64,000 bases of DNA. It comes from Mytilus edulis (Eukaryota). Below, in pieces: positions 1 to 60,700 of the stretch. The position numbers and the translations under genes are program-made. The stretch is taken from contig NC_092347.1 in NCBI RefSeq assembly GCF_963676685.1, forward strand, positions 72,044,001 to 72,108,000, given 5' to 3'. A model generated the notes under the pieces. That model ran no database searches. It worked only from the letters and a program-made list of their open reading frames with translations, and was not told the DNA's origin. Position 1 is the stretch's first letter; each line of letters begins with the position of its first letter.

Positions 1-587
1 TCAGGAACGCTCAAAGCCAAACATTTGAAATCCGAGGATTTATAAGTACCGAAACCGTCAATAATACCTAAAATAAACAGCCAAATTCATCTAAAGTCAA
101 CTTTGCCTGAGGGAGTTGAAACCTTAGTTTCTTAATAATTTTAAAATTTATAAACGGACAATTTTAGAGAAGTATGTTAAATCATGTCAGTACCGAATTA
201 CTGACTACTGAGCTGATGATACCCTCGGGGACTGATAGTCCACCAGCAGAGGTGTCGACCCAGTGATGTATAAAAATGAAAACACGTTTAATTATTCCAT
301 GCGTCCGAAGCGCTTTTCTGGATTTACCTTCATCAGAAACTCTCAAAGCCAAACATTTGAAATCCGAGGATGTATAAGTACCGAAACCGTTGAAGAGCTA
401 TATGTCAAAAATACCTAAAACAAATAGCCAACTTTGCCCGAGGGTATTGAAACCTTAGTTTCTTTATTTCAAAATTTATAAACGGACAATTTTAAATAAG
501 TATGTTAAATCATGTCAGAACCGAAGTACTGACTATTGAGCTGATGATACCCTCGGGGACTGATAGTTCACCAGCAGAGGTATCGAA
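1..587 (-). repeat. Head-to-tail tandem of a ~332-bp retrozyme-like/pLTR repeat (family A), about 1.8 copies, cut by window start
   Basis: tcaggaacgctcaaagccaaacatttgaaatccgagga at 1 recurs at 333; both units run to ...cagcagaggtrtcga; a hammerhead motif lies at the unit junction; a deleted copy sits at 19788-19992. Confidence 0.85.
301..342 (-). ncRNA. Type I hammerhead ribozyme-like motif (minimal palindromic stem III)
   Basis: Minus strand GAGTTT-CTGATGA-AGGTAAATCCA-GAAA-AGCGCT-TC-GGACGC; in the first unit (positions 1-10) the stem I strand is GCGTTC, which pairs with GGACGC; stem II is atypical. Confidence 0.6.
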
Positions 588-4720: not shown

Positions 4721-4812
4721 CCAGACACTCGGTAAGGAAGTCAAATATTCGTGTTTCCATCTTGCTAAAAATAGTTCAATAAGACGGAATCTCCTTTTCG
4801 CTTGATCATTTA
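4721..4812 (-). pseudogene. BEL/Pao pol C-terminal fragment, part 1
   Basis: DQAKRRFRLIELFLARWKHEYLTSL; joins 3162-3342 (..RVSG|NNNQ) when the 3343-4714 insert is removed. Confidence 0.8.
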
Positions 4813-5132
4813 TAGTTTCAGGTGAGCCATGCTGTGGGAGGACATCATTTAGTTTTTTGTTAACATCATTGACAGTTCCAGGTGAGCCGTGCTGTGGGGG
4901 GACATCATTTTGTTTTTTGTTAACTTCATCAACAGTTTTAGGTGAGCCATGCTGTGGTAGGACATCATTTTATTTTTTGTTAACTTCATCAACAGTTCCA
5001 GGTGAGCCGTGCTGTGGGAGGACATCATTTAGTTTTTTTGTAAACATCATGGACAGTTCCAGGTGAGCCGTGCTGTGGGAGGACATCATTATGTTTTTGT
5101 TAACTTCATCAACAGTTCCAGGCGAGCCATGC
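4813..5132. repeat. 60-bp minisatellite, ~5.3 copies
   Basis: Unit acagttccaggtgagccrtgctgtgggaggacatcattt(a/t)gttttttgttaacttcatca. Confidence 0.95.
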
Positions 5133-5290
5133 TTCATCAACAGACGTAAGACTTTGTCTATTTGCCTTTAAGATATCGGAGAGGGAGAACTGATTTCATT
5201 TGATTATGGGGACGACTCAAGTCAAATGGAATGGCGATCTATGAAAGAAAACACGGAATCCTCGCATGAAAATGCTGTTCCAGGTGGAAG
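5133..5290 (+). repeat. Duplicated C-terminal SET-domain segment (copy of 5786-5935)
   Basis: ttcatcaacagacgtaagactttgtctatttgcc...gattatggggacgactcaagtcaaatggaatgg present twice, 653 bp apart. Confidence 0.9.
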
Positions 5291-18489: not shown

Positions 18490-19065
18490 AGGTGTATCAG
18501 CATGTTTGGCATATAACAGTAAGAGCCGCTGATGCACATGCTAAAACTGTAATGAGGTCGTAATCCGTCATTTGTTGTCTGTTGAAGCTATAATTTTTTG
18601 TTTGATTTGCTCAGTTCCTTCCCAAAGCCGGCTTTGTCGGCGTTTCAGATTTGGGCAGGTTTGTCTGTAAGGCCGAGTTTTTCAATAGTTGTGTTGTGTT
18701 GAGTAATGTAAAGTCATCATCAATTACTTGTTGTGATGATACAACTACTCTTGATCTTGCGAGAGAAGTTGTGTTTCTGAAAGCTCATCTGAAAGAAAGA
18801 TTGTCTTTTCATAAACCTTTGGCACCATCTCTTTGACGGGGAAGAAATGTACACATGTAATTTGCAAGGGATGCATCCTGTGATTGTGTTAGGTAGGGCC
18901 TTTGTCCACTCTTTTTGCCTCTTGTACTTTCCCCCGAAAGGTAGTCACCTAATGTTTTCCTTGTGATGTCGAATCGTTTTGACGCTCGGGTGTGTAAGGA
19001 TGCCCCTTTTTAATTTGGCCCACAGCTTCGCATAACTGTTCATGTGTGTATTTCTGTCTAGCCAT
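18490..19065 (-). pseudogene. pogo/Tigger-like transposase relic 2 (HTH-psq, CENP-B-like helix, start of DDE)
   Basis: MARQKYTHEQLCEAVGQIKKG..SKRFDITRKTLGDYLSG..RPYLTQSQDASLANYM; PSKRWCQRFMKRQ; KPAQI*NADKAGF; ITVLACASAA. Confidence 0.78.
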
Positions 19066-19300
19066 CTAAAATGAAAAATTGATTTAGTGATCGGGTGTGT
19101 AAGGATGCCCCTTTTTAATTTGGCCCACTGCTTCGCATAACTGTTCATGTGTGTATTTCTGTCTAGCCATCTAAAATGAAAAATTGATTTAGTGATCGGG
19201 TGTGTAAGGATGCCCCTTTTTAATTTGGTCCACTGCTTCGCATAACTGTTCATGTGTGTATTTCTGTCTAGCCATCTAAAATGAAACATTGATTTAGTGA
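18986..19300. repeat. 105-bp tandem repeat x3
   Basis: Units start at 18986, 19091 and 19196 (tcgggtgtgtaaggatgcccc...gatttagtga). Confidence 0.97.
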
Positions 19301-19392
19301 TGACACAATACATAGATTGTATATATATTGTAAAAACATGCTATTTTTAGTAAGACGATGCATACTGGCGATCTCTTATAGCATCTTATAAT

Positions 19393-40118: not shown

Positions 40119-41556
40119 TGTAACGTTTTCGCTCAGTGTTGCTATAGCGTTTTCGTTACCCTGAAGTGAAACTCTGACCCACTGACAAAACTAGACAATC
40201 CGCCAGACAAACTAATACTCGGCAATAAATACTGTTTCAAATGACTGCTCCCTTGGGTTAACTCAACCCTGTAATCCAATAGGTATATTAAAAGATGCGT
40301 TGTTTTAGAAGACAGGAATAAATAATTCGTTTAAAGTTAATGATTTAATGAAGTGTTACTATGATCAGTTATAGATATGTAATTCAGACAATTTCAATAT
40401 TGTATCTCTTTTTTCCATCAGATCAACACAATAAATAACACTTAAATAGTATGCAAGCTAGTGAGTACTCTGGTCAAGTTCTATATACACATTTATTAAA
40501 TAAAACAATCTTATTAACAAGTAATTATAGAAATCTCTATAATTATATAAGTTATGGCGACTTCTCAAATGTATAAGTTGCGTCTCCGGGTTTTACTGTA
40601 CTTTTTGTGAATATTCGACTTCGTAATATATATGTAAAGAATCGTTAATACATGTAATAACAGTTTCTTTACTATTGGTATATCAAGTAAATAAAACAAG
40701 AATAACTTTAACTTACTTTCTCTGAAGAAAAACTATATTGACGTCTTATTTGAATAGCGACTTTAAGACTCGAGACTGCGTCGGTGAGTTTCTGTATAAA
40801 ATATGGAATATTTTATATTTCTGACTTTTCTGTACTTTTAAGTATATAACTTTTTGTACGTCTAATGATCTCTAATCTTTAGAGTCTCTTATAATATAAA
40901 ATTATAAATCTATGTTTTACATAAAGTAAAACTCTGATAAAATATTTCCTAACCTTTTTAGAAGTGCAAGACTCAAATTGTAAGTTACAGTGAAGAAAGG
41001 ATTTATTATTAGGCTTGTGATTGTAAGCAACCTTTTGCCACGGTAGTCCGATCACGACTTACGCGCTCAATGGTAGTGCAATATATATACAACAAAAAGA
41101 CTTAAAAGACTTCATATTGACGTCAAAGGCGACTCGAAAGACTCTATTTCAACGTAAAATTGCCGTTCATGACAGTGCACTTTGACGGTTTACGGTAAAG
41201 CGACTCCAGTAAACATGGCAGACATTACAAGGAAAAAGAGAGACTCTGAGTCTCTAGAAACTTGACCAGGTTAATTAATTCACTCAATATAATTATATAT
41301 AGAGATTAAAACAACAAAATACAATCATTAACAAATATATAAAGGTAGGTCCAGTATAAGGAAATTCTGTATTTACACTGTACAAAAATAAATAGAAAGG
41401 CGACTCAGTTATCTAAGGTAACTTATTCTAATAAAAAGAAACATATTCAAAAATTTATAAGTATCAAATACGGTTTAAACAGAGATTTAACTTGATAAAA
41501 AGTGAAAAGGGGGAGGGGACACAAACTGTTGAACAACGAGGCCGAAATCCGTTACA
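40119..41556 (-). mobile_element. Gypsy 3' LTR (1438 bp)
   Basis: Bounded by TGTAACG...CGTTACA; polypurine tract AAAGAAGAGGGCAA immediately upstream on minus strand (41570-41557); partner LTR not seen in window. Confidence 0.75.
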
Positions 41557-41756
41557 TTGCCCTCTTCTTTAAAAAATTAAATTGATTTACTCAAATTATT
41601 TTTAGCATTAATGAATATAATACATTTATAATACACATTACTTCAAAATTGATTCAAATAAATACAATAAATAAATGCATTGTATATACAAATATGCATA
41701 CTCTCAACACACAACACTCTAAACTGGAATGAAACATCTAAGTTTCATTAATATTT

Positions 41757-43104
41757 GTAAATTACTTTCTTCAGTGGTAGTGTTTATCCACTTTCGGTAC
41801 AACTGTTTATTAGTACAAAGCGATCCCACTGAGACCAGTATTTCTTAAGTTTTACATTGTGTAAAGCCACATCGGCCCATTCAGGTCTGTTGTTATTATC
41901 AAGTCAAGCCAAGTTAAAGCTCCATGATCTGTTCGTACTTTAAAATGTGTACCATAGAGATAGTGATGAAAATGTTTAATGCTTAATATTACAGCCAAAA
42001 GTTCTCGTCTTTTTACACAGTATTGTCTTTGCGCTTTACTGAGTGATTTACTGTAATATGCTACTACAACCTCTTTGCCTTCGTGAATTTGAGAAAGGAC
42101 TCCACCAATTCCGAAACCACTAGCATCCGTATCTAGTATGTAATGTTTTGTCATATTAGGGTAGCCTAAAATTAGTGCAGACATTAAAGTCATTTGGAGT
42201 TTCTCAAAAGCTTCATTACATTCATTGGTCCAATCAAAAGTACAATTTTTCTCTGTTGATTTATGAAGTGGTCTTGCAATTTCAGCAAATTTTTTTAATA
42301 AATTTGCGGTAATATGAACATGTTTCTAGAAAACTTCGAACATCTGTCATTGATTTTGGAAATGACCATGTTTTAACACAAGCAATTTTATCAGGGTCTG
42401 TTGCTATACCCTCACTTGAGACAATATGTCCAAGGAAATAAACTTGTTTCTGAAACAAACTACATTTTTTAGGTGAGACTTTTAGTCCTTGTAGTGCTAT
42501 TCTATCTAATACATCACTTAGTCTTGATAAATGAGATTCAAATGAATCTGAAAACACTATTATATCATCAATATAAACCAGACATGTCTGCCAATTAAGG
42601 CCAGCCAAAGTATACTCCATTAGGCGTTGAAAAGTGGCAACCCCATTACACAGACCCATAGGGATTACGTTAAAATGAAATAGCCCTTTTGTACTAGTAA
42701 AAGCTGTTTTCTCCTTATCATTTTCGTCCAACTCAACTTGCCAATTTCCACTTGAAAGATCAAGTACACTCAGCCATTTAGAGCATCCAGAGAGTCGTCA
42801 ATGCGGCATAATGAGTATGAGTCTTTAATTGTAAGGCTATTTATGGGTCTAAAATCTATACAAATTCTCGTGTAGCCATCTTTCTTTGTCACAGGCACTA
42901 TACAAGATGCCCAGGGACTTTTTCAAGGCTCAATTAATTTACCTTCCAAAAGACGTTGAATTTCTTTATCGACTTCATCCCTTTTTGTTAGAGGTAAACG
43001 CCTAGGGGGTTGCTTAACTGGTTTGGCATTACCAGTGTCAATTTTATGTTTAATGGCAGTAGCCCTTTCTAAATCATCTTTATTTTTAGAAAATGTTTGA
43101 TTGT
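41757..43104 (-). pseudogene. Gypsy RT-RNase H, duplicate copy A (continues 48745-49388)
   Basis: ORFs 42282-42731 and 41852-42193; near-identical to 54920-56320. Confidence 0.92.
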
Positions 43105-43449
43105 TGTGGAGGTTAAAAGTATGATATTTTCGCTAATATAAACAAACACGTCTGTTCAGCCATAACTTTTAATAACAACTCAAAGAGCCCACGGCGACGT
43201 CACTGATAATGTACAAACTTAGGAACGTCGTAATCCCGCGGTAATGTCGACATACTGGGGGCCGCAAAAAGTGCAAATTATCTTAAATTTCACATTAACT
43301 GTCCATATTTGTAAATAAATCAAATTAAAAAAGTCTCTATCTTCATGAATGAACTAAATTGAATTAACTAAGTTCTTGTTCACATAAATGAAAAATTGAA
43401 TTAACTTTGAAAGCCCTTTTTAAAATTGTTAAAGTTCTAGTCTTCTTCA

Positions 43450-44930
43450 TCATTTTCGTCTACATTGGTTATCCACCAGTGAGGTCAAAACGGTGTTTTT
43501 TGCGCTGTTTAGTTCTGGCCATTTTGTACTATCTGTTAACCAATTTGGTCCTTTCCGCCAAAGTATACTCTGGTCAAATTGTTCAATTGTAAGTCCTCTT
43601 GTAAGAAGATCTGCCGGGTTGTTATCAGTAGGGCAATACCGCCATTTGTATGGATGCGTCAATTCTGTTATTTCCTTCACTCGATTAGCTATAAAACGTT
43701 TCAAAGTCTTCGTAGATGTTAGCCAATGAAGAACAATGCTGCTATCTGACCAAAATACAATTTTTGGATAATTAAGTGTTGAATGAAGATGTGCAGCTAG
43801 TCGTGCGCCGATGATTGCTGCCATAAGTTCAAGTTGTGAGAGGGTTAAACATTTGACTGGTGCTACTCTGGTTTTCGCCATTACTAAAGTTGTTTTGTTT
43901 TCGTTACACAAATAAGTTGCTGCGCCGTACGCCTTTGGACTTGCGTCTGTAAATACATGAAGTACTAATTCTGTTGATGCTGATGGCTTGCTAAAATAAT
44001 ATCGAGGAATAGTGAATTGTATTGCCTTTTCCAAATCTTTGGTCAAATCTATCCACGTAGTCTTTAAATTATCTGGTATAAGTTCGTCCCAATCTAATCC
44101 ACATTTCCATAACTCTTGTATCAGGATTTTCGCTCTAATTGTAACCGGACTAAGTAAGCCGAGTGGATCATAAATCTTTGAAGAATATTTCAAAACTTCT
44201 CGTTTAGTAACATGTTGAAGTAGTTCCGGTGTAGGAATTTCACGCTTAGGGTAAAAAATCGTCGCTTCGACTGTTCCACAACATTCCAAGTATTTTTGTT
44301 TACTTATCCGTATCTAGGACATTTTCCTCTTTAGCTAATTTTAGTAATTTAGCACTGTTTGAACTCCCATGATCTCAAGTTGAATCCAGCTCCAGCCATC
44401 AAGCTCCTTGCTTCTTTGAAATACGTATGTAAATCTTCCTCTTTATTCATACTAGACAATATGTTATCAACGTAAATATCTCTTTCTAGAATTTTAGCTG
44501 TTTCACTGTTTCCGAATTGTTTCAAATGTTTCTGTATTGTGGCGTTGAGTATAAAGGGCGAAGACATCGCTCCAAATAACACTGCTTTGAACCTATAAGT
44601 TTTCAACTGACTTCCTGGGTTTGTAGGGTCACTAAGCCATAAAAATCGGGTAACGTCTCTATCTTCTTCGCTCAATCCAACATGTAAGAAAGCTTTCTCA
44701 ATATCAGTACATGTAGCAAACTGGTTGGCTCTAAACTGTACTAGGAGTTTTGTCAAATCATTTAATTTTAGTGGTGTGTCCATCAGACAATCATTTAGAC
44801 TTGGATGACTTGGTGATTGACGACAATTGCAGTCGTATACTATTCGTATAGGAGTTGTGCTAGATTCCTTGTGTATAGGGTGGTGTGGAATGTAATGAAT
44901 TTTCCCGCCTTTTTGTTCTTTTTCATCTAC
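43450..44930 (-). pseudogene. BEL-3 RT and RNase H (frameshifted)
   Basis: HYIPHH, LNDCL, DIEKAF, YVDN, IYDPLG, LHVFTDAS, NPADLLTRG. Confidence 0.93.
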
Positions 44931-46205
44931 GGATGACAGCGAAAGTGAAGAGGAAATAGACAACTTGGATATGACGCACCAAAATAGTCTAGGCAGTATA
45001 ACAAATATATTGGATATTTCGAACCATGGATCTTACATGAAATTACTACGTATTACCGCCTATGTCATCCGTTTTATCCGCAACTGTAGATGGGATAGGA
45101 TTTCCAGAAAAAGCGGACCACTGGAGGTCAATGAAATTCAAACAGCAGTAAATACTTGGATTCTAGATTGTCAAGAGTCGACGTATACAGATGAAATGTC
45201 ATATTTGAGAGGAGCACAACACAGACACACAAAAGTACCCAGAGTCCGACAATTGGGACTTTTATTAGACGAATCCGGTCTTATCAGATGTAACGGGAGA
45301 ATACACAACGCACCAATACCAGAATCAGCGAAATGTTCGTACCTTATACCGGCAAATCATCCGTTAACTAGACTAATTGTATTGCACGCACACGAAAAAT
45401 TACTTCACAGTGGAATTAATGCTACAGTCACCTATATTAGACAAACGTTTTGGATACCAACTATTCGACAGTATGCAAAGAAATTACTCCGCAAATGCGT
45501 TATTTGCCGCAAAGTGAATGGAAAATCGTGCGTTGCACCAGACCCACCACCTTTACCAAAAATCAGATTACAGGAAGCACCCCCCTTTACAGTCACGGGA
45601 GTGGACTTTACAGGAGCATTACTTGTAAGAGAAGAAAATAGAATTTTAACAAAAGCATATATATGCCTGTTTACCTGCGCTTCTACCAGAGCCGTTCATC
45701 TAGAGGTGGTACCGAACCTAACCGAACATTCGTTTGTTCAAGCTTTTAGGCGTTTCGTAAGCCGCAAATCAATACCTAAGACACTTATATCAGATAATGC
45801 AACTACTTTCATTGCAGGAGCAGAGGAACTAAAACGATTATGTGAATCGGCAACACTAAAAGAAACGTTGTCTATACGAGGAATAGAATGGAAGTTCATA
45901 CCAAAACGCGCACCTTGGTATGGTGGATTCTGGGAGAGACTTATTGCGCTAACCAAAACAAGCTTAAAAAAGACACTTGGACGAACTCAAGTTAGTATGG
46001 AAACTCTACAGACTGTCGTGACAGAAATAGAAAGAATTTTAAATGACAGGCCACTTACATATTTTTCATCAGATATCAGAGATTGCGAGACGTTAACCCC
46101 CGCTCATCTTTTGTATGGTAGAAGAATATCAGCGCTGCCATATACGCAAATAGACATAGAGGAATTCAACGATCCAAACTATATGAATCATAAAGAAATC
46201 AACAA
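44930..46205 (+). pseudogene. BEL-3 integrase block, inverted and displaced
   Basis: 432-aa ORF 44965-46263 with HHCC (H..LLHSG..CVIC), GVDFTG, SDNA, GGFWERLI, LTPAHLLYGR; opposite strand to the rest of the element. Confidence 0.93.
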
Positions 46206-46229
46206 ATCCTCTGCGTTCCTGTTCGGCGA

Positions 46230-48458
46230 TTATATCTCCATCTTTAGTAGTTTAGGATCTTGACTAAGTTTCTTAATAACGTTCTCTGTTCTTCTTCTTG
46301 TGACTGTATAGTTTGATGGTAGTTCGTCATGTTCCTGTTTCCATGGCAATTTTGCAAAGTATTTATTACCTCTGAGTTCAATCGAAGTGTCTTGATATGT
46401 TTCCAAAAAATCCGTATCTTCTTCGTCTGTTTCCTTCGAGTTAATACCAATCGATTCCAATCTCCAAAATGCTTCTATATCATGCTCCTCCGTTTTATGA
46501 GAAACAAGAATATTAAAAATGCTAGTACCCATCAACGAGTTATCCCTCTTGTCGCTTACTGGACCGGAAAGTAAGAAACCTAACTTTGACCTCACGGCGG
46601 TTGGACCATTTTCCCGTATGACTTCATCCTCGACTAAGTCCCAGTAGTAGTCAGCTCCGATCAATAACGATATTTCGAAAGACTCTTCCTGTGTTACCGG
46701 ATGTGCTAACTTAAGTCCCCGTAAATAATTCAGTCCTCTGTTGATGTGGCGAATATTGTTCTGCAAAGGTACGGCAATCATTGGTACAATTAGAACGTGT
46801 ATCGGTATTTTCTGTCCTGCATCTGTTTCTACGAACACTGTCGATTTATCTAAATGTCTTACGTTTTTGTTTCTATCTCCAAATGATGATAACTGTAGAA
46901 TTTCAGTTCCCTCTGAATGTAAATTAAGTTTTCTAGCTAAATCTTCAGTCACAAATGATCTCTGTGCTCCCTCGTCAAAAAGTATATGGGTGTCTCTACA
47001 TGAGTGGTCTGACCATACGGGTGCTACTGCAGTTTTTAAAAGAACATTTGTACGTACCTCGACTGACGATGAGTATAAAATTGACGTGTCCTCTTCCTTC
47101 TGATTCGTGTCATTTACCAAATGTACAGATGTCTGATTAGCTTGTCCATTGTTACCATGAAAATTCATATGCTGTTGGCTGTAATTTGCATTTTGTTCGC
47201 TTTGTCTACTCTTGTCATTATCGTGGTTCTTGTTGTTAAATTGGCGTACAGTACACAGACTTGTGTGGTGTCTTTTGTTGCAATTTCGGCATAAGTGTTT
47301 TGACTTACATTCATGTATACGATGTGTTCCAAGACAGTTGAAACACAATTTCTCGCGTTTTACAATGTTCATGCGTGATGCTGGAACAGATACGTTCTTG
47401 CAATGCGCTGGTGCGTGTACATCGTGGCAAAATACACAAGGTTTAGTGTCTAAATTCTGGCGTATATTTCTTGTATTCAGAGCTTGATTTTGGCGGGGTT
47501 TTGTTGATTTAGTTCCGGTAAAGAAAGATGATGTACTTGGTAAATTGTTAGAAGTTTCAGTGTCTTGTCCCGCATCAATTATGTTTATTTCATTGCAAAT
47601 ACTTTTCTGGAGGTCTCGTAATAACCAGTTTTCTGTTCCATGTTCACGGGCAAGGTTTCTTTTAATTTCTCCCGGTAATTTATTCAAAATAACTGGTACA
47701 AGTAGTGTTCCGTACGAGTCTTGTGATTGGCCTAAAGATTCTAGCCCTCTTACATAAGTTTCCATTTGATCATAGAATTGTCTCAAACTGATAAGATTGT
47801 TTCGTGGTGATGGAATTTCTAATAATGCTTGAATGTATGCTTGCGTGATTTTGTGTGTTTGTCCGAATCTCTCCTTCAATAAAATAATGGCGTCTGCGTA
47901 GTTTGCATTAGTAAGTGCAAAACCAGCTATGGTGCGTAATGCTTCATTCTGTAACTGCGCTTTGAGGTAATTAAATTTCTGGACATCGGTCAATGCAGGG
48001 TTTAAATGTATGGCGCATTCATACGAATCCCAGAAAGTTTGCCAATCTAATATATTCCCTGTGAATATCGGAAGTGAGAGTTTGGGTAAGTTGTGATTCT
48101 GACTGCTTGCGGATGTATACGAATTTATATTAGTACTCACTGTGTTACTAGCTTGAGAGAACGGATTTTGGGACGACTGCGTGCATGAGTTTTCTGTGAG
48201 GTTTGCTGAGACGAACGGATGAGAATCAACATTTAATATTTGCGATGAAGTATCACTCTGACGTGTCTTTGATGTGGTATGAGTATCTTGAATAAAATTT
48301 CTTATGTGTCTTATTTTTGTTTCTAACGTAATACAATACTCATCTGAGTCTAGAATTTCACTTTCAATATCTTCTGCTTCCGCTAGGTTGAGTATCTGCT
48401 CATTCAAATTGTTCAGTATCTTTTGCTTCTGAAGAAGGTTTTCAAATGTTGCGTTCAA
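46230..48458 (-). CDS. BEL-3 gag-protease polyprotein (open 742 aa)
   Basis: LPKLSLPIFTG, three Cys/His knuckles, LFDEGAQRSF, LLIGADYYW. Confidence 0.9.
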   Translation of the reverse strand: MNATFENLLQKQKILNNLNEQILNLAEAEDIESEILDSDEYCITLETKIRHIRNFIQDTHTTSKTRQSDTSSQILNVDSHPFVSANLTENSCTQSSQNPFSQASNTVSTNINSYTSASSQNHNLPKLSLPIFTGNILDWQTFWDSYECAIHLNPALTDVQKFNYLKAQLQNEALRTIAGFALTNANYADAIILLKERFGQTHKITQAYIQALLEIPSPRNNLISLRQFYDQMETYVRGLESLGQSQDSYGTLLVPVILNKLPGEIKRNLAREHGTENWLLRDLQKSICNEINIIDAGQDTETSNNLPSTSSFFTGTKSTKPRQNQALNTRNIRQNLDTKPCVFCHDVHAPAHCKNVSVPASRMNIVKREKLCFNCLGTHRIHECKSKHLCRNCNKRHHTSLCTVRQFNNKNHDNDKSRQSEQNANYSQQHMNFHGNNGQANQTSVHLVNDTNQKEEDTSILYSSSVEVRTNVLLKTAVAPVWSDHSCRDTHILFDEGAQRSFVTEDLARKLNLHSEGTEILQLSSFGDRNKNVRHLDKSTVFVETDAGQKIPIHVLIVPMIAVPLQNNIRHINRGLNYLRGLKLAHPVTQEESFEISLLIGADYYWDLVEDEVIRENGPTAVRSKLGFLLSGPVSDKRDNSLMGTSIFNILVSHKTEEHDIEAFWRLESIGINSKETDEEDTDFLETYQDTSIELRGNKYFAKLPWKQEHDELPSNYTVTRRRTENVIKKLSQDPKLLKMEI

Positions 48459-49566
48459 TTCTTCTGGATCGAAATCTGTATCTTGCTTTGCTGCATCTAT
48501 CTACGAATAAGTTTTGTAACAGCACTTCTGTTCCCTGGTCTTATCGACTTGAGCTTGCTTAAATCCTGGTCACGGCACCATAAATGTGGAGGTTAAAAGT
48601 ATGATATTTTCGCTAATATAAACAAACACGTCTGTTCAAGCATAACTTTTAATAACAACTCAAAGAGCCCACGGCGACGTCGCCAACGTCGCCAATGGTA
48701 ATGTACAAACTTAAGAACGTCGTAATCCCGCGGTAATCTCGACAATTGTGTCTTTTTGTAAAAGAGACTCTAACTGATCAATTTGACCCTCATTCAAAAG
48801 TTCACTGCTCCTTAATTTCAAATCTTGCAAAAGACTAGGTAATTCCTTTACTTCGTCACATGATGATGAACTCAACCGCCTGAGTTTTTCTGACCTTGGT
48901 TCATTGGAGACTGAACCTGTATCAATAAGTTCACATGTGGCAAAATGTGTGAAAGGCTGCATTATTTGTTCATATTTACTTAAATTAACCATTCGTATAG
49001 GTACTTGACCACAACTGGGGTCCACTAGTGCTTTAGCAACTAGTAAAGTCTCCGTATGTTTTGAAGGTATTGGTTCAACAATAGCATTCATTATACTACT
49101 TGAATCACCTTCAACAATTCCTGATATGATATCTTCTGTATTGGGTGGAATAGTAAGTTTGTCACTAAGTTTAATTTTAAAAAGTTGAACTCATTTGACT
49201 CTCTTTTATACAATCTATTTTTGAGATCTTCAATGATAGTACCCCCTTGCCCATGTCTATGGTACAGTTTTTTTTTATGTCAATGAAAAAAAACTTAACA
49301 AATTGCTGCTGGCACATCTATCTCTGCAACAGTAAATTTTTTAATAATGGTATAATTTCCTATTTTGATAGGTAAATCTACATGACCCATTGTATTTACA
49401 AAACTACTAGTTTCATTAATATTTGTTCTAAATAACCAGTCCCTTCCCAAACTATCAAAAACTTTTACCCAACCAAAATTTTTCCTAATTACTCTACCGT
49501 AAATATAAATTTTTACATAATAACTAATTTCTAAAAGCCTATAATTGTCCGAATATAAAAACTGTT

Positions 49567-52500
49567 CTAGTGATAGTCCATGTACTCTTCTTCTATGTCC
49601 AGATCTAATTCTTCTTCTGTTTCTTTTTCCACTACTATTCTGCAATCTTCTGTTTGAACCTCTGTCTCTATCTTGACAACTCTCCTCGTCTGGGTGGCTG
49701 TTGTTGCAAGCACAACCCGCTTATCCTCCGTTTGCGTAGACGATTGTTGAAGTTGAAGCTCTTCTGTCTGTGTGTCCTTTGACTTCAAACTGTGAAAAGA
49801 TGGGTCTGGTATTCATGTAGCAGACAGTTTGTATACTGTTCCATCGGGCAGAATACACTATTTGTCTTTCCTTAACCAACCATATCCTGTTGGCAATACA
49901 CTGCATGTATTGTTGAGAATAGTTCGAAGTTATAACGTTACGTTTCCCGTATTTACGTTCACATGTTTGTGACGTTTCTTACACCTTGTATGGGCTTCGC
50001 CATTGTAAATATTATACGCAAAGTAAACACAACGCAAAGTACATATACGACTTACTTAGTTTATTCCACCCATGTATGGTGCCGTAACCATTGGATAAGA
50101 TAGACAGCAAGCTAAAAGCAGTCAGAGCTGGTCACAAAGGTGCAGTAAAGAGACTTTTACGGAAAACGGAAGACGATTCAAACTTGGACAATGAAGAAAG
50201 TGCTGAACTTTTAGAAACATTAATTCAAAAACAGAAAATTATTAGTGCATTGGACGAAGATATTATGAATTCTTTAAAGGAGGAGGACATCGAGGAAGAA
50301 ATTCTTAATGCAGATGAGTACAAATTCTTTTTGAACACCAAAATACGACATTTACGGAAAACATTCGTAAACAAATCATGTACTGATAATGATATCCCAC
50401 AGCATGATCACGCATTACCTTCTCACACTTTTGAAAACATTAATCAACACAGTTCTGTTCCGTACACAACACAAATGTATCCCGTTCAGCAACCTAGCAA
50501 CCAAAATCACCATTTGCCGAAACTTACACCACCCATGTTTAACGGAGAAATTCTGACTTTTTGGGACTCTTTTGAATCTTCCGTCCATTACAATTTAACA
50601 CTAACAGACGTACAGAAATTTAGTTATTTAAAATCCCAGCTTGTTAATGATGCTGCAAGAACTATTGACGGGTTACCGCTCACAAACTCAAATTACATGG
50701 AAGCTATTAAACTTTTAAAGGAGCGTTTCGGACAATAGCATAAGATTACAAATGCTTATATGCAAGCTTTGCTAGAACTTAGAGCACCACAAAACAACCT
50801 ACTCAGTCTACGTGTTTATTACGACAAGTTAGAGGCATATATAAGAGGTCTTGAATCGTTAGGCCGCTCCGGAGAATCGTATGGTGCATTACTTATTCCG
50901 ATAATACTGAACAAGCTTCCGTCAGAAATACGACATCACTTAGCTCGTGAAAACGGTTCCGATAATTGGGAATTGATTGATTTGAGACGTGGAATTTTGA
51001 AAGAAATCACTATAATTGAAGCTGGACAACGTTCGTCGTCGTTTATGGATTCAATGCAGCCTACCACAATGACCGCGTCGTTTTTGACATGCGCTAATAG
51101 AAAATGTGAACCGAGTAAAGTAGTTACATTCGATAACCGTGAGAGACAAACACAAAATATTCGACAAAAACCTTGCATATTCTGCCAGAATTTACATGAC
51201 CCTGCAAAATGCCCAAATGTTACAGATCACGATACACGCCTATCAATCGTCAAAGAAAAGAAGTTATGTTTTAACTGTTTAGGATCACACCGTTCCGTAG
51301 ATTGTAAATCGAAATTTCGCTGCCGCCAGTGCCATCAAAAGCACCACACAAGTCTTTGCCATAGAAATACCTGTACTAATGATCAGCAGATGTCAGTTAA
51401 TGCCGTAGTTGATGATAGCGAAAATACATTGATCGCCGCAAGTTTTCATTCGTCTGAAGAAAAATCCCGTTCGAACGTGCTTCTAAAAACTGCCGTTGCA
51501 CCAGTTGGGGGAAATCAATATGTTGATACGCACATTTTGTTTGATGAAGGAGCACAGCGCTCTTTTGTTACCGAGGAGTTAGCGTCGAAAATAGATTTAG
51601 AAATACTAGGAACAGAAACCATACATTTATCGGCATTTGAAAGTACCGACAGCAAAGTCCGTCATTTGTCAAGAGCACTTGTATACGTAGAGTCGATAAA
51701 AAGAACGAAAATTCCAGTTGAGGTTCTAGTAGTACCGAACATCGCCAGCCCGTTAAGCAATTACATCGGTAATGGTATACGAGAATTCAAGTACCTGAAA
51801 GGATTACGTTTAGCTTATCCGTTTACAGAAGACAACTCTTCTTTTGAAATCTCCTTGCTCATTGGAGTTGATTTCTATCGGGATTTCGTAGAGGATAGAA
51901 TATTAAGAGGAAATGGTCCAACCGCCGTAAAGTCAAACTTGGTTATTTGTTGTCTGGTCCAATTCCGACGTCTTATCGTCACAGAGTAATGTAGGTATGT
52001 ACAACATATTGACATCGCACAAAGCAGAGGAGTTGAATTTAGAAAGATTTTGGGAATTAGAGTCGTTAGGAGTGGATAGCAATACGACAGATGTTGAAAC
52101 GGTAGACTATATGGAAACAAATCAAAAGTCAGCAATTGAATTCCGAGAAAACAAGTACATAGCAAAGTTGCCATGGAAACCAGATCACGAACCCTTGCCT
52201 ACAAACTTCTTCGTTACGAAACGAAGAACTGAAAACGTCATTCGAAAATTAAGTCAAGATCCCGAAATGCTTAAGGTATATGGACAGATAATCAAGGATC
52301 AAGAACGCCGAGGATTTATTGAGAAGATTAAGGATCCCGATATTAGTAAAGGTATTGTACATTATATCCCGCATCACCCCGTCAAGAAGAAATAAACGAA
52401 GTAACACCATCTGATGAATATGTGGAAGAACCAAACAACGAAGAAATACCGACAAGAACATTGCCCTTGCAGAAGGCATCAATTCTTGCAAAGGAAAGAA

Positions 52501-53508
52501 TAAAATCATGGACTCGTTAAAGTTTAATTCAGATTCCTATTTTTGTGTTTTGAAGAGACAGTAATTCCTGCAAGTGTAAAATTAAATTTCTTTTCTTTAT
52601 TGATGAACATTTAAAGTAATATTTTATTGTTTTGTACATAAATACACTTTGCGGGGCCCAGTATGTTGAGAATAGTTCGAAGTTATAACGTTACGTTTCC
52701 CGTATTTACGTTCACATGTTTGTGACGTTTCTTACACCTTGTATGGGCTTCGCCATTGTAAATATTATACGCAAAGTAAACACAACGCAAAGTACATATA
52801 CGACTTACTTAGTTTATTCCACACATGTATACTTTCCCGTCTTCTTTGCCTTCTCAGCTACTAATAGGCACTTGGAAGCTTCATAGGAACACTGGAAGCG
52901 GGAGGGTGGGGCCTGGAATCTGTCTTCAGGACAGACTTCATCCCCAATAGCAGACAATTCCAAATGCCTAATATCCCTCATAATACTAGTAGCTGTGGAT
53001 GGTTCTGGAGTTGGTTGCTCGGATACCATAATGGGTTCTTCTATGAGCTCTTCCACAGCCTGTCTAGTAGGATAGTCAAATAGATCAACTAGGTTTTTCT
53101 TAACTGGTGACGGGGAGCTATAATCCTCAATTCCAAAAGAAATACTGCAAGGGGATATTTCGGACAGTGGCGAAATAGGTTTTACAGATTTTGTCAGTAT
53201 TGGTGTTGTTGGCGGTGTTCTGGGCCTAGTGATAATGTAGCTTTGTCTTGGATGGGAATAAGATGTTGGCACTGGTTTTCTGGTCGGGGTTTCTGGTGTT
53301 ATGAGTTCTCTGTCTTTAGTTCTGGGGTTCATGATATGTCTGTGAACATTCTTCTCATGTTCCATCAAGCGGAACCTCTTACTTGTAGGTACCAAGTACG
53401 AGCAAAATCTTCCCTGCAGCATCTTCTAAGAATGTTTGTCCCTAACATGTCTGGTCAATTGACTCCTAAGATTATACTGGGCACCACAGTGAAAGCAAAA
53501 AAAGTCAT
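49567..53508 (-). pseudogene. Gypsy accessory ORF (C2H2 zinc fingers + TQT motifs), split by BEL-4: 53508-52826 joined to 49905-49567
   Basis: CFHCGAQYNLRSQLTRHVRDKH, degenerate second finger GRFCSYL...HEKNVH, Pro/Ser/Thr linker; frame continues across the TSD into CSVLPTGYG..LPDGTVYKLSAT*IPDP..KDTQT..SSTQT..TATQT..TEVQT; three in-frame stops. Confidence 0.75.
49911..52825 (+). mobile_element. BEL/Pao element 4, non-autonomous deletion derivative (gag-PR only)
   Basis: 162-bp LTRs 49911-50072 and 52664-52825, one difference by eye; TSD TGTAT; PBS TGGTGCCGTAACCA at 50077; coding ends at HYIPHHPVKKK*, so RT/RH/IN are missing. Confidence 0.96.
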
Positions 53509-53789
53509 CTCAAGTATAAAAATACTGTTTTCAGAATATATTCAATTTTAACACACAGCACAGTTGACCAGTACCCATAATTTTGCTTGCATACTTTGGT
53601 AAGTATTTATACTTAAATTTCTGTTTTTCATTCTATTAAAAAATACTTTTTATTAACACACAGCAATAAACCTCGCTATGATTAATATATATATGAACAC
53701 AGAAAATGCGTTCTTCATTTATTCAAACACATTTACTAACTTTCACATTTCAAATGCTAATTTGAAACACATTTATTTATTTTTCAGAT

Positions 53790-56700
53790 ACCAGCGGCAA
53801 CCACAGTGTTAACAGTTTTGTCAGTTCTTTGGTTTTCTTGTAATGTTCGTTGACCCAGTTTTGAACATCACCAAGAATGGTTTTAGCCTATCATGATGCA
53901 CAATTTGCATTTTAGACGTTGCTGTCTTTTTAATCTTATATATTAAATCCGATATAACTTCTACAACAAAGTATGGTCCATCCCAATTCCTTTGTAACTT
54001 TGGACTCAGTTTTGGCTTTCAATTAAAAGTATAAAGCCATACTACATCGCCTGTCTTGTATGTGTTCTCATGTGCCTTAACATCATACTGACGTTTTTGT
54101 TTGTCACTATTTTTAGAAATATTTTGTCGTGCTTTAGCAGACACTTTCCATATGCCTTCCTGCATATTTTTAACATAATCATTGTGTGATACTGTTTCGT
54201 CGAGATCTTCAATTTCCTGGGGGTGGGGACCATATATCAAGTCAACTGGAAATTGTATTTCTCTGCCTAGCATAAGCATACTAGGACTAAACTTAGTCGT
54301 TTCATGTTCTGATGAGTTGTACGCCATTAAAGCCCAGGGAAGTTGCTCGTCCCAATCCCTTTGATTTTTGCTGACGTATTTACTTATTGTATTTTCAAGA
54401 GTTCTATTATAACGCTCCATTGCTCTGTGGCCTAAATTATGTAGTCCTTGTTTTGTCAATTTTTAACTTAGCACAAAGTTCCTTAAATAAATTGTCTCCC
54501 TTGATCTGAGTGCATTTGACAAGGTATTCCAAATCTACAGAAGAAATGGTTAACTAAATTATCAACTATGGTAGTAGTTTCCATATCTGGCATGGGAAAA
54601 CCTTCTACCCATTTAGTAAAATAATCTGTTACAACCAAAGCATAATTGTTATTTGTATATGAAATCGGTAAGGGTCCTATTATATCCAAGGCAACTCTTT
54701 CTATTGAAGCACCCATATTGTATTGTTTGGGAGGCTGTTTGCGTGAATTGCAAACAATACAGTTTTGCACCCATTTGGTTATTTCATCTTTATGATAAAC
54801 CCAATAAGATCTATGCTGTGCTCTGGCTACAGTTTTGTGTATGCCAAAATGGCCAACTTGTATGTCATCATGTAACATTTTCTTAATATTTTCTTTCCAG
54901 ATTTCAGGGACTATGAATTGTAAATTACTTTCTTCATTGGTAGTGTTCATCCACTTTCGGTACAACACTTTGTTTATTAGTACAATGCGATCCCACTGAG
55001 ACCAGTATTTCTTAAGTTTTACATTGTGTAAAGCCACATCGGCCCATTCAGGTCTGTTGTTATTATCAAGTCAAGCCAAGTTAAAGCTCCATGATCTGTT
55101 CGTACTTTAAAATGTGTACCATAGAGATAGTGATGAAAATGTTTAATGCTTAATATTACAGCCAAAAGTTCTCGTCTTATTACACAGTATTGTCTTTGCG
55201 CTTTACTGAGGGATTTACTGTAATATGCTACTACAACCTCTTTGCCTTCATGAATTTGAGAAAGGACTGCACCAATTCCGAAACCACTAGCATCCGTATC
55301 TAGTATGAATTGTTTTGTCATATTAGGGTAGCCTAAGATTAGTGCAGACATTAAAGTCATTTGGAGTTTCTCAAAAGCTTCATTACATTCATTGGTCCAA
55401 TCAAAAGTACAATTTTTCTCTGTTAATTTATGAAGTGGTCTTGCAATTTCAGCAAAATTTTTAATAAATTTGCGGTAATATGAATATGTTTCTAGAAAAC
55501 TTCGAACATCTATCATTGATTTTGGCAATGGCCATGTTTTACTCAAGCAATTTTATCAGGGTCTGTTGCTATACCCTCACTTGAGACAATATATCCAAGG
55601 AAATAAACTTGTTTCTGAAACAAACTACATTTTTAGGTGAGTCTTTTAGTCCTTGTGGTGCTATTCTATCTAATACATCACTTAGTCTTGATAAATGAGA
55701 TTCAAATGAATCTGAAAACACTATTATATCATCAATATAAACCAGACATGTCTGCCAATTAAGGCCAGCCAAAGTATACTCCATTAGGCGTTGAAAAGTG
55801 GCAACCCAATTACACAGACCCATAGGCATTACGTTAAAATGAAATAGCTCTTTTGTACTAGTAAAAGGAGGGACGGAAGATACCAAAGGGATTGTCAAAC
55901 TCATAAAAAGCTGTTTTCTCCTTATCATTTTCGTCCATCTCAACTTGCCAATATCCACCTGAAAGATCAAGTACACTCAGCCATTTAGAGCCTTTCAGAG
56001 CATCCAGAGAGTCGTCAATGCGGCATAATGGTTATGAGTCCTTAATTGTAAGGCTATTTATGGGTCTAAAATCTACAAATTCTCGTGGAGCCATCTTTCT
56101 TAGTCACAGGCACTATACAAGATGCCCAAGGTCTTTTTGAAGGCTCAATTATTTTACCGTCCAAAAGACGTTGAATTTCTTTATCGACTTCATCCCTTTT
56201 TGTTAGAGGTAAACGCCTAGGGCGTTGCTTAACTGGTTTGGCATTACCAGTGTCAATTTTATGTTTAATGGCAGTAGCCCTTCCTAAATCATCTTTATTT
56301 TAAAAAAATGGTTGATTGTGTCTTTTTTAAAAGAGACTCTAACTGATCAATTTGACCCTCATTCAAAAGTTCACTGCTCCTTAATTTCAAATCTTGCAAA
56401 AGACTAGGTAATTCCTTTACTTCGTCACATGATGATGAACTCAACCGCCTGAGTTTTTCTGACCTTGGTTCATTGAACTCATTTGACTCTTTTTTATACA
56501 ATCTATTTTTGAGTCCTTCAATGATAGTACCCCCTTGCCCATGTCTATGGTACAGTTATTTTTATGTCAATGAAAAAAACGTAACTAATTACTGCTGACA
56601 CATCAATCTCTGCAACAGTATTTTTTTTAATAATGGTATAATTTCCTATTTTGATAGGTAAATCTACATGACCCATTGTATTTACAAAACTACCATCGGC

Positions 56701-57793
56701 CAAACAAAGCCGCTTGCTATTTCTTTGAATTTTCGGTTTAAACTCATTTGGAAGTTTTTCAAACTTTCTAGGGTGTATTACACAAATTGTGGACCCTGTA
56801 TCAATTAAACAATTAACGACAACATCAACAGTAAAACATTTAACAAACAAACTGTCTTGTTTATTTGACTTAATTAAACTAATGGACCTCGAGTCCCTTT
56901 CTTCAACTGCTGGTGAACGGTCCTTATCCCCAGCATTTACCCTGTCTTTGAAAACTGTTATTTGTACTGTTAGATTGTGAATTTTTATTATTAAAATTTG
57001 GAACAAATTTCCGACTTTTGACACAATTGTTTCTTTTGTCCCATTCAAATTTTCTGCATTCTTTCTTAATGTGACCCTTATTCCCACAATAAAAACACGT
57101 CACTCTACTAAAAATTTTACTTTCTTTATTTGTCAATTTCTCTATTTGTTCACTTATCTTCGCAAAGCGAGTAACTACATCATATTCGGCAGAATCATCA
57201 TTTTCGGACAACATGCGTGTTGCCGGTTTGGCATTATTTAATCTCTTTTGATCAACAGTGAAACGCTTCATATTCAAGACCAAACCTTACACAATCATCA
57301 ATTGATTTTGGTTCTCTTCGAGATATTGATAATTGTATTTTTGGATCATTAATTGCACGAACAGAACAGTCTTTGGCTAGTTCATCCCTTATTTTAATAG
57401 GTGCAGTCGGATAAGCTTGTCTAGTTACCCTACGAATTTTTTGTGCCATTTCTGGCAAAGTTTGACCAGGCTTTCTATAAATAGAATTCATTTGTACTTT
57501 GTACTTGATTTGCAGGCTCAAATCGAGATGTCAAAGCAGATACAAAGATAGTCATATTTTAACCTTTTAGCAGGCTCAATATCGGTCACTATTCCTTGTG
57601 CAACTCCACGTAAACTAGCTGCAAGTTCATAAGCTTTCATGCCGTTATCCCACTTATTCACAGTAGATATTAGTTCAAATTGAACTAAAAAGTCTTGCCA
57701 ACTACCTGTTCTGTCAAACGTAATTGTTTTCTTATTTTTGAAATGAACTAAAGGTTCATTTATTTGAGGTACACAACTATTGACTGTTATCAT
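53790..57793 (-). pseudogene. Gypsy gag-pol, copy B (gag, PR, RT, RH, IN with GPY motif)
   Basis: ORFs 57518-57793, 57252-57521, 56924-57283, 56545-57087, 55569-55976, 55019-55546, 54483-55037, 54019-54459; IVHHDRLKPF near 53885. Confidence 0.93.
55868..55903 (-). mobile_element. Ultra-short Penelope-like 3'-end insertion in Gypsy RT
   Basis: gagggacggaagataccaaagggattgtcaaactca between two (T)AAAAG; absent from the paralogous site at ~42700. Confidence 0.88.
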
Positions 57794-60700
57794 TTATATT
57801 AAAAGTTAGATGGGAGTTCTCACTATAAGTTTGACAGTGACGTAGAATGTAGAATTTATCCAACAGTAGTTGCCCATTGTTGAAGGCTGTATATCAACAT
57901 GTAGTTGTTAATTTCTTTGTCACTTGATCTCTTGCAAAGAGTTGTCTTGTTGGCAATCATACCACATCTTCTTTTTTTATATTTCAAAGGAAAAATCTTT
58001 ACTTTATATGATCAGCTTGCTGTAGAGAGTTGATATTATATAGTGTTATTTAGTGTTTTCAGTCATTTTCCCTAATAAGTTCTTTCTGAAGATTAACCCA
58101 GACCTGGTGCTTGATTTGTGACAAGCATTTAAACATGTGGCAGTGTTTAAACATTTTTTAATATATTTACTGTCCCCTTTTTATCTCTGTCAGCTCCATG
58201 AACTAAGTAACAAATAGTACATTATACTCCTAAATAAACATTGTTGAAGGCCAGTTGCCTATAATAAGTTCCATCTAATTCACTTGCACTTTGATGGATA
58301 ATAGTTTCATTGTCAATCATATCACATTTCCTTTTTTATCAATACACAAGTTCTTTAAAAAAATCCAATTATAAGCAATATCATATCATAGAATGTTCCT
58401 GTTTACTGGAAGAAAGATAATTTATGCATGCACAGGCAGCTACTCGATAACAAAAACAAAAGAAGAGTCCAAAATCATCATAGGTCAACTTTGTCAAGAA
58501 AAACTGGCATAAATATTAATACATATAAATGTTTATTTTATTTGTATTTTAATGTTCTTTCATTTCTAAAACATCTACTATCAAGCTAAAAATCGGAACA
58601 ACATTGTATAGACTTAAAAGGAAGCACAAACAACCATAGATTGGTATATTAAAACATCTATTCATTAAAAACCACACAAACATTTTTTTTATCATACATT
58701 CATTTATATCCGAACCAAGAGTTTTATACAATATATATACACTGTAGAATTGTATATGTCTTTAAAACAAAACAAAATGTTTTAAGCTTCTTATTCTTGA
58801 TCATCTATTTCATTTTTCATAAAAACGAACACTGCTCAAATGCATAACTACCAAGACTCCAGGATACTTTCAACTTGTTATTTTATCTGTATATTATAAA
58901 AATATTACATTGGTAAGTAAAAATAGATCATTGACAAAAAATAGCTAAAATGTTTCAAAAAAAATATTCTATCATATCATTAAAGTTTCACATACATATG
59001 AAATAAAAGATTTCTGTTGCAATTAATGATTGAAAAAAATGAATCTAAATAAAAAATTTTCTTCAATCTACTAAACTAATCAATAGTTAAAATTTTTATT
59101 ACACAGCTTTGTTGAAAGAGATGTATCCCAATAAATAAATAAATAAGAAGTTACTTAAAAATCAATACATCTTACTTAGCATTATGCTTAAAAATAATGC
59201 TTAAAAACTGCGACAGCATATCAAATATTGGTTATCTATCATACATTTATATAAATGTAAGTATTAAGATGAAAATACAAGCATTAGTGTACCAAAGTTT
59301 TATACAAAGCACTTCTTTATAAATGAATTAACAGATCTCTATTTAAAAAATGTAAGACCTTAATGAAGTCACTCTCAGGAACAAATGAAAGGAAATGGCC
59401 TTATATTTAAATGTCAATCATTAGTACTATTCTAGAAATTAAAAAAAAAAAATTAACGTCAAAAAATCAATATGCACTTACGATTAAATTTATGCATAGG
59501 ATAAATACAAAAATTAATATTTTTTTACAAAATTGTCTATATAAAAATGTTAAGACTAGAAAACTTAATTTTATCCACTTTTACTTCTTCTTACAGATCG
59601 TAATTGAGTTATTAAAACCAGCTATATGTAGGTGCATGATTGATAAACAGGCCAATTCCCAAAAGGGAATTTAACAGAATTACTGATATAGAAAAATATT
59701 AAAATACTATCTAATATATTTTTCGTTCTTGTAAAATCATTATTGTAACTATTTTTGAACTATGATCACCTAATGGTTTGTAAGATCACAAAAACAGATA
59801 AATTAATAATAATACAGAGAAAATTCATGAAAGATAGATTATGAACTGAACTATTCTTATAACATTTAGTTTTATTCAAGCCATTGGGAAGGTCTTAAAA
59901 CATGATTTCACTGTTATGCATTTACTGGTATAATTTTTGAAGTTTTGGCTATTTTAAAATAAACCTATTAAATAATTACAATACTAAACAAATACATGCA
60001 CTAAGACATGGCTTTTAAAAAGCAATGAGACAAAATATGGAATGAACTAATTACTAATGAGGTAAGAGATTCAGATGGATGTAAGTGATAAATCAGAAGT
60101 AACAATTGATTAACCAAATCGTCAAATGAACTTCTTTGACAAATTCTTGAAAAAAAATGATACTTTGAAAAATGGGAATAAATCAAGCGCCTGTTCAATT
60201 AATACATATATTGGATCAATTGCACATTGAATTCTCTACCATAAGTTGGTGTCAAGTACAATGAAAATCAATAGATCAACGAAAGGGTTATTGCAAGGGT
60301 TCTTTAACATTCTGATAGCATGGCTAATTAAATAGAAAAGAAATAATCAAAATAATACTATATAATTAAAAAAAATTTACCTATAATTTACATGTAGTTA
60401 TGGATTAAAATATCCCACGAGAGATACAACTGTATGAATAAAAAAAGATACCAATATTTGTCAGTTAAAATTACTTTTGTCAGTTATAAACATTTATATA
60501 AGTGACATTTGTCAGTTAACTTAGATTGACTAGGATGATGACTAGCATTATAACCAAAAGTAAATATGTTCTTGTTCAATTTTGATAAAAAAAATATCAT
60601 GTAACAAAATTGAATTGCTCTTGTGAAGATTATGTTATGTTATATATTATATATATACTGTAAAATATGAAATATTTCCATGCATTTATCATATTTTATT

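Follow-up and report, generated by a model that had tools for sequence, protein, structure and literature searches.

A conserved third gene encoding zinc fingers and predicted LC8-binding motifs in a Gypsy retrotransposon lineage of molluscs

A broken ORF3 in a Mytilus edulis Gypsy element

The window, a stretch of 64,000 nucleotides of Mytilus edulis DNA, carries on its minus strand the remains of a Gypsy element with the Pfam domains zf-CCHC, Asp_protease_2, RVT_1, RT_RNaseH, Integrase_H2C2 and rve (Table 1). Its displaced 3' LTR is 91% identical to the LTR of an intact copy, and no 5' LTR was found between 57001 and 64000 or in the next 10 kb. An earlier note on this DNA had proposed an additional ORF, which we call ORF3, between the end of integrase and the 3' UTR, and the sequence bears this out, with integrase ending at ~53784 and remains of the ORF on the minus strand. 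The ORF is interrupted within a conserved core domain by a truncated BEL/Pao element with TGTAT on both sides, and joining the two flanks in frame, as the note suggested, gives the same register as that of unbroken natural copies, where the anticipated product of ~340 aa is encoded by one ORF of 344-345 aa. The three TQT motifs and one VQT motif are likewise present as quoted. The hidden open frame claimed for this copy did not hold up: there are three in-frame stops, of which the note hinted at the last only, and the start codon at 53508 lies in a different frame from finger 1. With the BEL insertion, the stops, the out-of-frame start and one substituted zinc ligand in finger 2, we reject the window copy as a functional gene; it is a dead pseudogene, with a 5' piece that retains 82-90% nucleotide identity to other copies.

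Table 1. Features of the Gypsy element and its ORF3 in the window
Feature	Position	Strand	Basis or remark
Gypsy 3' LTR, moved by internal duplication and a second BEL-like insert	40119..41556	-	Mapping of intact element
ORF3 acidic/aromatic C-terminal tail and stop	49567..49650	-	Sequence
ORF3 four LC8-type anchors	49651..49773	-	TQT 49765-49773, 49729-49737, 49687-49695; VQT 49651-49659
ORF3 conserved core domain, second part	49801..49905	-	Sequence; stops at 49858-49860, 49813-49815
BEL target site duplication (TSD), TGTAT	49906-49910 and 52826-52830		Both flanks of insert
Truncated BEL/Pao element inside core	49911..52825	+	Pfam DUF1759, DUF1758
BEL LTRs	49911-50072 and 52664-52825		1 of 167 nt differs between them
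ORF3 conserved core domain, first part	52826..52978	-	Core profile
ORF3 5' piece	52826..53508	-	Translation; start out of frame, stop at 53426-53428
ORF3 Pro/Ser/Thr linker, disordered, S/T-P sites	52979..53341	-	Sequence and model
ORF3 C2H2 finger 2, spacing atypical, a zinc ligand replaced	53342..53413	-	Sequence
ORF3 C2H2 finger 1, CX2CX12HX4H	53432..53497	-	Pfam zf-C2H2, E 6.6e-4
Pyrimidine-rich tract ending in AG, abutting ORF3 ATG; predicted splice acceptor	53509..53530	-	Sequence
Gypsy gag (5'-truncated) and pol (PR-RT-RH-IN), fragmented	53784..57831	-	Pfam and mapping of intact element

Intact copies in nine Gypsy families

A DNA search of the genome with the ORF3 3' piece recovered 21 loci, and because 6 of these hold a single unbroken frame of 344-345 aa, the ORF is more than a chance occurrence. 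We fetched 29 regions around matches, a choice biased to long open frames, and found the layout LTR-gag-pol-ORF3-LTR in 19 (6/9, 9/10 and 4/10 in three batches); of the other ten, five carry pol upstream but lack an LTR pair, one has been rearranged and four have neither gag nor pol nearby. Nine divergent Gypsy families share this layout in the Mytilus genome searched. Their LTRs measure 1.1-1.6 kb, and the two LTRs of one copy show 97-100% identity, indicating that these families were recently active. LTRs of the TG..CA form, a PBS and a PPT are all present in intact copies, and five copies of families A-C have a 4-bp TSD. A gag gene with a CCHC knuckle precedes a pol ordered PR-RT-RH-IN, which places the elements in Ty3/Gypsy (Metaviridae), and a GGGAAAC sequence at the gag-pol overlap of 7/7 copies examined is likely a -1 frameshift site.

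Among eight rows compared, RNase H identity ranged from 65 to 98%, and identity of the ORF3 core tracked it (rho 0.66 over 28 non-independent pairs). Two small trees concur on the groups B+C and E+F and do not resolve the other branching. In this mollusc Gypsy lineage, ORF3 forms a conserved third gene that sits between integrase and the 3' LTR. The lineage-encoded accessory gene at the env position that the earlier note had predicted is thus found in 19 of the 29 regions, and other members of the group do carry the ORF, in nine families, between pol and the 3' LTR.

Purifying selection and distribution among molluscs

We computed dN/dS on ORF-intact copies only, which form a selected set, and obtained values for ORF3 of 0.18-0.36 in 14 of 15 family A pairs (0.58 in the remaining one) and 0.07-0.24 in four pairs of other families, compared with 0.12-0.17 for pol and mostly 0.15-0.5 for gag. 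Pooled over three pairs, pN/pS was 0.10 in the fingers, 0.08 in the core, 0.14 in the tail and 0.34 in the linker. ORF3 is under purifying selection, with a dN/dS of about 0.2 across copies, as the earlier reading implied.

A protein search over 1.84 billion representatives returned 122 proteins, and a profile of the core matches 99 of 138 fetched proteins. Close relatives, sharing 90-97% identity, carry Mytilus annotations, and the named carriers (Mytilus, Potamilus, Argopecten, Mizuhopecten and Haliotis) cover mussels, scallops, a unionid and abalone. Linkage to Gypsy is established in this Mytilus genome, and relatives elsewhere are protein matches alone. A viral scan returned no relatives, a metagenome scan returned one locus that matches through generic zinc fingers only, and a search for fused forms of 1020-2910 aa found none, which is weak evidence.

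Domain architecture of the ORF3 protein

AlphaFold2 models consist of two confident C2H2 fingers, a disordered linker, the core and a disordered tail. The C2H2 fingers proposed earlier stand in part: finger 1 has a zf-C2H2 match in the window copy that is weak and under the curated cut-off, and is modelled at pLDDT ~96 in a natural copy, while finger 2 is degenerate in the window copy only and reads CX2CX13-14HX3-5H in intact relatives. The modelled pair adopts a tandem C2H2 fold with best matches among DNA-binding C2H2 pairs (YY1, Z 5.7, rmsd 1.9, 52 residues aligned), and Z 5-6 is the generic level for any C2H2 pair. Since the finger linkers are non-canonical, the second finger is atypical and the recognition positions are variable, RNA or protein is as possible a target as DNA. 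S/T-P-x-K/R sites occur in ORF3 of 10/10 families.

The core spans ~85 aa and is modelled as one helix with a β-sheet of two to three strands. No Pfam family was found for it among the matches listed (25 of 36 families), nor was there a match in PDB sequences or the Atlas, and fold searches gave nothing clear (Foldseek best E 0.097 against PDB and 0.004 against viral models; VIA best Z 4.2). The absence of a clear fold match is no proof of a new fold. This domain, like the splice acceptor, the Gag TQT motif and the PxDLS-bearing lineages described below, adds to what the earlier note contained.

We considered and rejected an env identity for ORF3, because it has no transmembrane segment: the maximum 19-residue hydropathy is at most 1.11 in nine of ten families and 1.87 in the tenth, there within a low-complexity repeat, and the model consists of fingers and disorder.

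Short linear motifs in ORF3 and Gag

Motif statistics were drawn from 36 non-redundant relatives with a tail of at least 22 residues, out of 81 that reach the end of the core. A strict TQT lies 8 to 21 residues after the core tryptophan (W+8..21) in 17 of the 36, compared with a shuffled mean of 1.0 and a maximum of 6 in 2000 shuffles, and the Q of an xQT falls exactly at W+15 in 20 of them; windows upstream contain none (0/332). TQT-bearing members have one to four strict sites per ORF3, the additional copies in the tail stand at variable spacing, and known anchor variants occupy the same position. In family D, one of the nine, the +15 site is missing, though sites occur farther downstream. 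The conservation expected of these motifs is therefore real and not universal: two intact families (I/K and J/M) end just past the core without any TQT, from which it follows that LC8 is not essential to the gene. Sites 2-4 have pLDDT under 50 and are modelled as disordered, site 1 is borderline, and the block around the first site reaches pLDDT 82 in one model; the invariant W+15 position may have a structural role.

LC8 forms homodimers that bind two disordered, TQT-anchored chains in parallel, often close to another dimerising element (PMC5963919, PMC7919418), and needs motifs in disordered regions (PMC12057147), as the available parts of these papers describe. By its motifs, TQT-type anchors in a region modelled as disordered, ORF3 is a predicted LC8 client. 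The host genome encodes at least seven canonical LC8 genes. A predicted complex of two ORF3 core-tail chains with two host LC8 chains scored 0.37 versus 0.38 for the control and carries no weight here. The suggestion that ORF3 might be a transport adaptor is weakened by the account in the sections of PMC7919418 available, where the two LC8 grooves dimerise clients and LC8 did not link SFiNX to other complexes.

Five of the six families scored have a Gag protein with GTQT at its end (shuffled mean 0.31, maximum 3 in 5000), after the zinc knuckle and before the frameshift site, and the codons for it vary synonymously. Gag lacks GTQT in the window's own family, in H (where gag is broken), in I/K and in J/M. 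The window's family combines four sites in ORF3 with none in Gag, and both families without ORF3 TQT are also without Gag TQT. The linkers of these TQT-less families contain PxDL[ST] (by a strict count, three in I/K and one in J/M); PxDLS is a CtBP-binding motif. Over 37 non-redundant proteins we count 6 PxDL[ST] motifs, in 4 proteins, versus 0.6 in shuffles (maximum 4), and three of the four lack LC8-type sites by a loose LC8 pattern with an uncomputed chance level. The PxDLS cases are few and related, amounting to two changes on the tree.

A predicted splice acceptor at the ORF3 start codon

YAG stands directly before the ORF3 ATG in seven of nine families, and the other two have AG within 3 nt; in the same regions, 87 of 2297 ATGs are preceded by YAG. 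We compared four sequencing runs with one copy of the ORF3 element. One X1 contig starts to match at precisely the acceptor and has 67 unmatched bases before that point, and depth in X1, which is only guessed to be RNA, is ~20 on ORF3 versus 0-3 on gag-pol; an X7 contig starts at the ORF3 ATG. No splice junction was called in 4/4 runs, and scans of the LTR and leader returned no donor in common with family A. The raw reads aligned, 260 and 40, gave no ORF3 peak. Raw reads of X21 are sparse and mostly antisense if the library is of the usual stranded type. Given the conserved YAG|ATG acceptor and the contig break at that point, ORF3 mRNA is likely spliced at the predicted acceptor.

A model for ORF3 function and its alternatives

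Two zinc fingers by themselves read few bases, and LC8-assisted dimerisation next to the core would therefore be a sensible route to a nucleic-acid binder. The position, conservation, purifying selection, domain layout and motif enrichment of ORF3 are established here, and we propose, with a probability of roughly one half, that it acts in the nucleus as a transcription-factor-like regulator of its own element and is dimerised by LC8. A splice into the acceptor that abuts the start codon would yield a separate ORF3 mRNA, and host LC8 dimers on the TQT sites of the tail would hold two chains in parallel beside the core, so that the paired two-finger units could bind nucleic acid with useful affinity. 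The most likely ligand would be the long LTR of the element, which is the simplest target under selection at the level of the element. The acidic/aromatic tail of some families and the PxDLS motifs of others point to transcription control: in TQT lineages the tail may activate transcription, and PxDLS lineages may recruit CtBP. S/T-P sites potentially place the protein under cell-cycle control, and Gag GTQT would represent a second, separate use of LC8.

The precedent of CERV, an accessory protein of the Cer1 element, makes RNA export the main rival, one that we consider doubtful. Here the spliced product would oligomerise through the core and LC8, and its fingers would bind unspliced genomic RNA and license nuclear export, which would address the retention problem that a strong acceptor creates within genomic RNA. 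Cer1 CERV is itself spliced, sits at the env position and requires S-P phosphorylation (in the portion of PMC10309623 available), and S/T-P-x-K/R sites are found throughout the ORF3 families; however, no homology to CERV was seen, and PxDLS and the acidic/aromatic tail suit transcription control better. The fixed spacing of TQT to the core, the ordered prediction for the first-site block and the intactness of families without a tail would fit a regulator independent of LC8, in which TQT is part of the core oligomer, as a structural strand, or a set of phospho-sites. We regard this as improbable in view of the extra copies at variable spacing in the disordered tail, the anchor variants and the independent GTQT of Gag. 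That same Gag motif, with its synonymously varied codons and its absence where ORF3 also lacks TQT, would suit an LC8 bridge from ORF3 to the Gag tail or dynein, making ORF3 a particle component or transport adaptor. The window's family, with its four ORF3 sites and none in Gag, speaks against such a bridge, as does the tendency of LC8 to homodimerise its clients, with SFiNX not connected to other complexes in the available sections of PMC7919418, and we find it an unlikely arrangement.

Fly piRNA-guided silencing needs LC8, which dimerises Panoramix via TQT (described in the accessible parts of PMC7919418 and PMC7861614), and a multivalent ORF3 with one to four strict sites might weaken transposon silencing by soaking up LC8 or CtBP or by competing at chromatin. 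This counter-defence is more improbable still: a sponge would have no need of conserved fingers or a core, host LC8 genes are many while ORF3 RNA looks low, and Panoramix orthologues are not known outside insects as far as the available part of PMC7861614 states. A single capture of a host zinc-finger gene, followed by neutral decay, might account for the broken state of the window copy and many others, and for the 4 of 29 regions without gag or pol nearby. We reject such neutral capture on dN/dS and pooled pN/pS; the presence of ORF3 in nine families and several mollusc orders and the absence of an intron-containing host version from the 29 regions, the single captured gene that could have undone the earlier reading, leave it largely refuted and very improbable.

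Building on the LC8-dimerised regulator, a broader picture is tentative and, in our estimate, rather unlikely in full: a "complex" mollusc Gypsy clade with its own spliced transcription factor containing a new domain, in which LC8 is used twice, in the regulator and in the Gag tail, free LC8 couples transcription to capsid assembly, and a sister branch has swapped LC8 for CtBP.

Relation to known systems and significance

Complex retroviruses encode the transactivators and exporters Tat, Rev, Tax and Tas, and ORF3 resembles these as a small, probably spliced and probably regulatory gene 3' of pol with short motifs that may mimic those of the host. It differs in residing in a member of the Metaviridae without env, and no sequence relation was seen. 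CERV, from the C. elegans Gypsy element Cer1, is closer: it too is an accessory gene other than env that occupies the env position, with an S/T-P site and a possible zinc finger, and it has the spliced mRNA and nuclear localization that are predicted for ORF3 (PMC10309623, in the portion available). CERV has exons in common with gag, contains a C4-type loop and has no homologues outside nematodes according to that portion, whereas ORF3 is encoded separately and has C2H2 fingers, either TQT or PxDLS motifs, and a different core. Plant LTR retrotransposons also have conserved additional ORFs between pol and the 3' LTR, but these are env-like or antisense, and none in the available text of PMC7264820 has the layout of ORF3.

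ASCIZ/ATMIN, to which ORF3 had been compared at the outset, likewise joins zinc fingers to a C-terminal region that is multivalent for TQT (PMC5963919, available in part). The likeness holds for this layout and not beyond it: ASCIZ is a host gene that regulates LC8 transcription, with 11 sites in human according to that source, whereas ORF3 has two fingers and one to four strict sites by a folded core, lies within a retrotransposon and has members without sites. Thus ORF3 has neither the very many sites of ASCIZ/ATMIN nor its direct succession of fingers and sites without an intervening core, and no ASCIZ-named Pfam model was among the matches listed (25 of 36 families) for ORF3 relatives. Panoramix, with LC8/Cut up, resembles ORF3 in having tandem TQT/V sites by a second dimerising element, and acts on transposon chromatin as an insect host silencing factor (available parts of PMC7919418 and PMC7861614); in ORF3 the motifs are on the side of the transposon.

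We found no description of ORF3 in the open literature, with term look-ups in the accessible text of four surveys (PMC13524379, PMC6238403, PMC8556966 and PMC12440569) returning none; Repbase, subscription journals or the supplements of PMC6238403 may annotate it. Its known kind is a Gypsy element with a non-env accessory gene, of which ORF3 is an apparently undescribed variant.

Few accessory genes other than env have been characterised in animal Gypsy elements, CERV being the worked example that we found, and ORF3 adds one with an unclassified domain that is present across nine young families in one genome as well as in bivalves and a gastropod. It identifies as retrotransposon genes a set of gene models that mollusc annotations list as "uncharacterised C2H2 protein", and its predicted short host-binding motifs lend themselves to direct bench tests. 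If our reading is true, it would extend retrovirus-like regulatory complexity to a large, poorly studied lineage and add transposon-encoded members to the clients of LC8, and if the broader "complex" Gypsy picture were also true, these elements would provide a transposon-side mirror of ASCIZ and Panoramix.

Variation in ORF3 and its genomic surroundings

The ORF3 families lacking a TQT tail (see table) carry PxDL[ST] motifs in the linker in its place. The linker of families A to D holds a short conserved block in which S/T-P sites are followed by a basic-hydrophobic stretch, a layout that resembles CDK sites accompanied by a cyclin-docking motif.

Some ORF3 loci of this genome are rearranged or degenerate. 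A family-G element has been duplicated, inverted, and rearranged at L081-L082 (contig C1, 115.19-115.21 Mb), with the two ORF3 copies pointing away from each other. At L110 (C6, 4.91 Mb) an inserted LINE-like reverse transcriptase ORF lies in frame with a degenerate ORF3 core. Within the window, the second BEL-like element, the longer one, sits inside the duplicated Gypsy pol region, and this arrangement is one of nested insertions. The tandem repeats of the window have no relation to the ORF3 finding.

Features of the window and of TQT-less ORF3 families (C, contig with position in Mb; L, locus)
Feature	Position	Loci
ORF3 families without TQT tail	C10:69.34M, C10:62.43M, C8:33.77M, C7:57.42M	L098-L103, L106-L107
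Gypsy pol internal duplication and inserted second BEL-like element	window 41755-49407 and 43450-48500	
Tandem repeats, 60-nt and 105-nt periods	window 4794-5133 and 18972-19301	

LTRs, host LC8 genes, and Gag

The CRE-like 9-mers TGACGTCA are common to the LTRs of families B, C, E, and G (4 of the 7 LTRs compared, as a raw count). The host genome encodes at least seven canonical LC8 genes, each with a single exon, that form two tandem clusters (L085-L091; C6, 62.5 and 87.5 Mb), besides which there are eight divergent matches. A GTQT motif of LC8 type is conserved at the Gag C terminus in families B, C, D, E/F, and G (e.g., L095 and L094), with synonymous codon variation across it. The motif lies after the CCHC knuckle but ahead of the frameshift site, and its retention in Gag-Pol would be expected.
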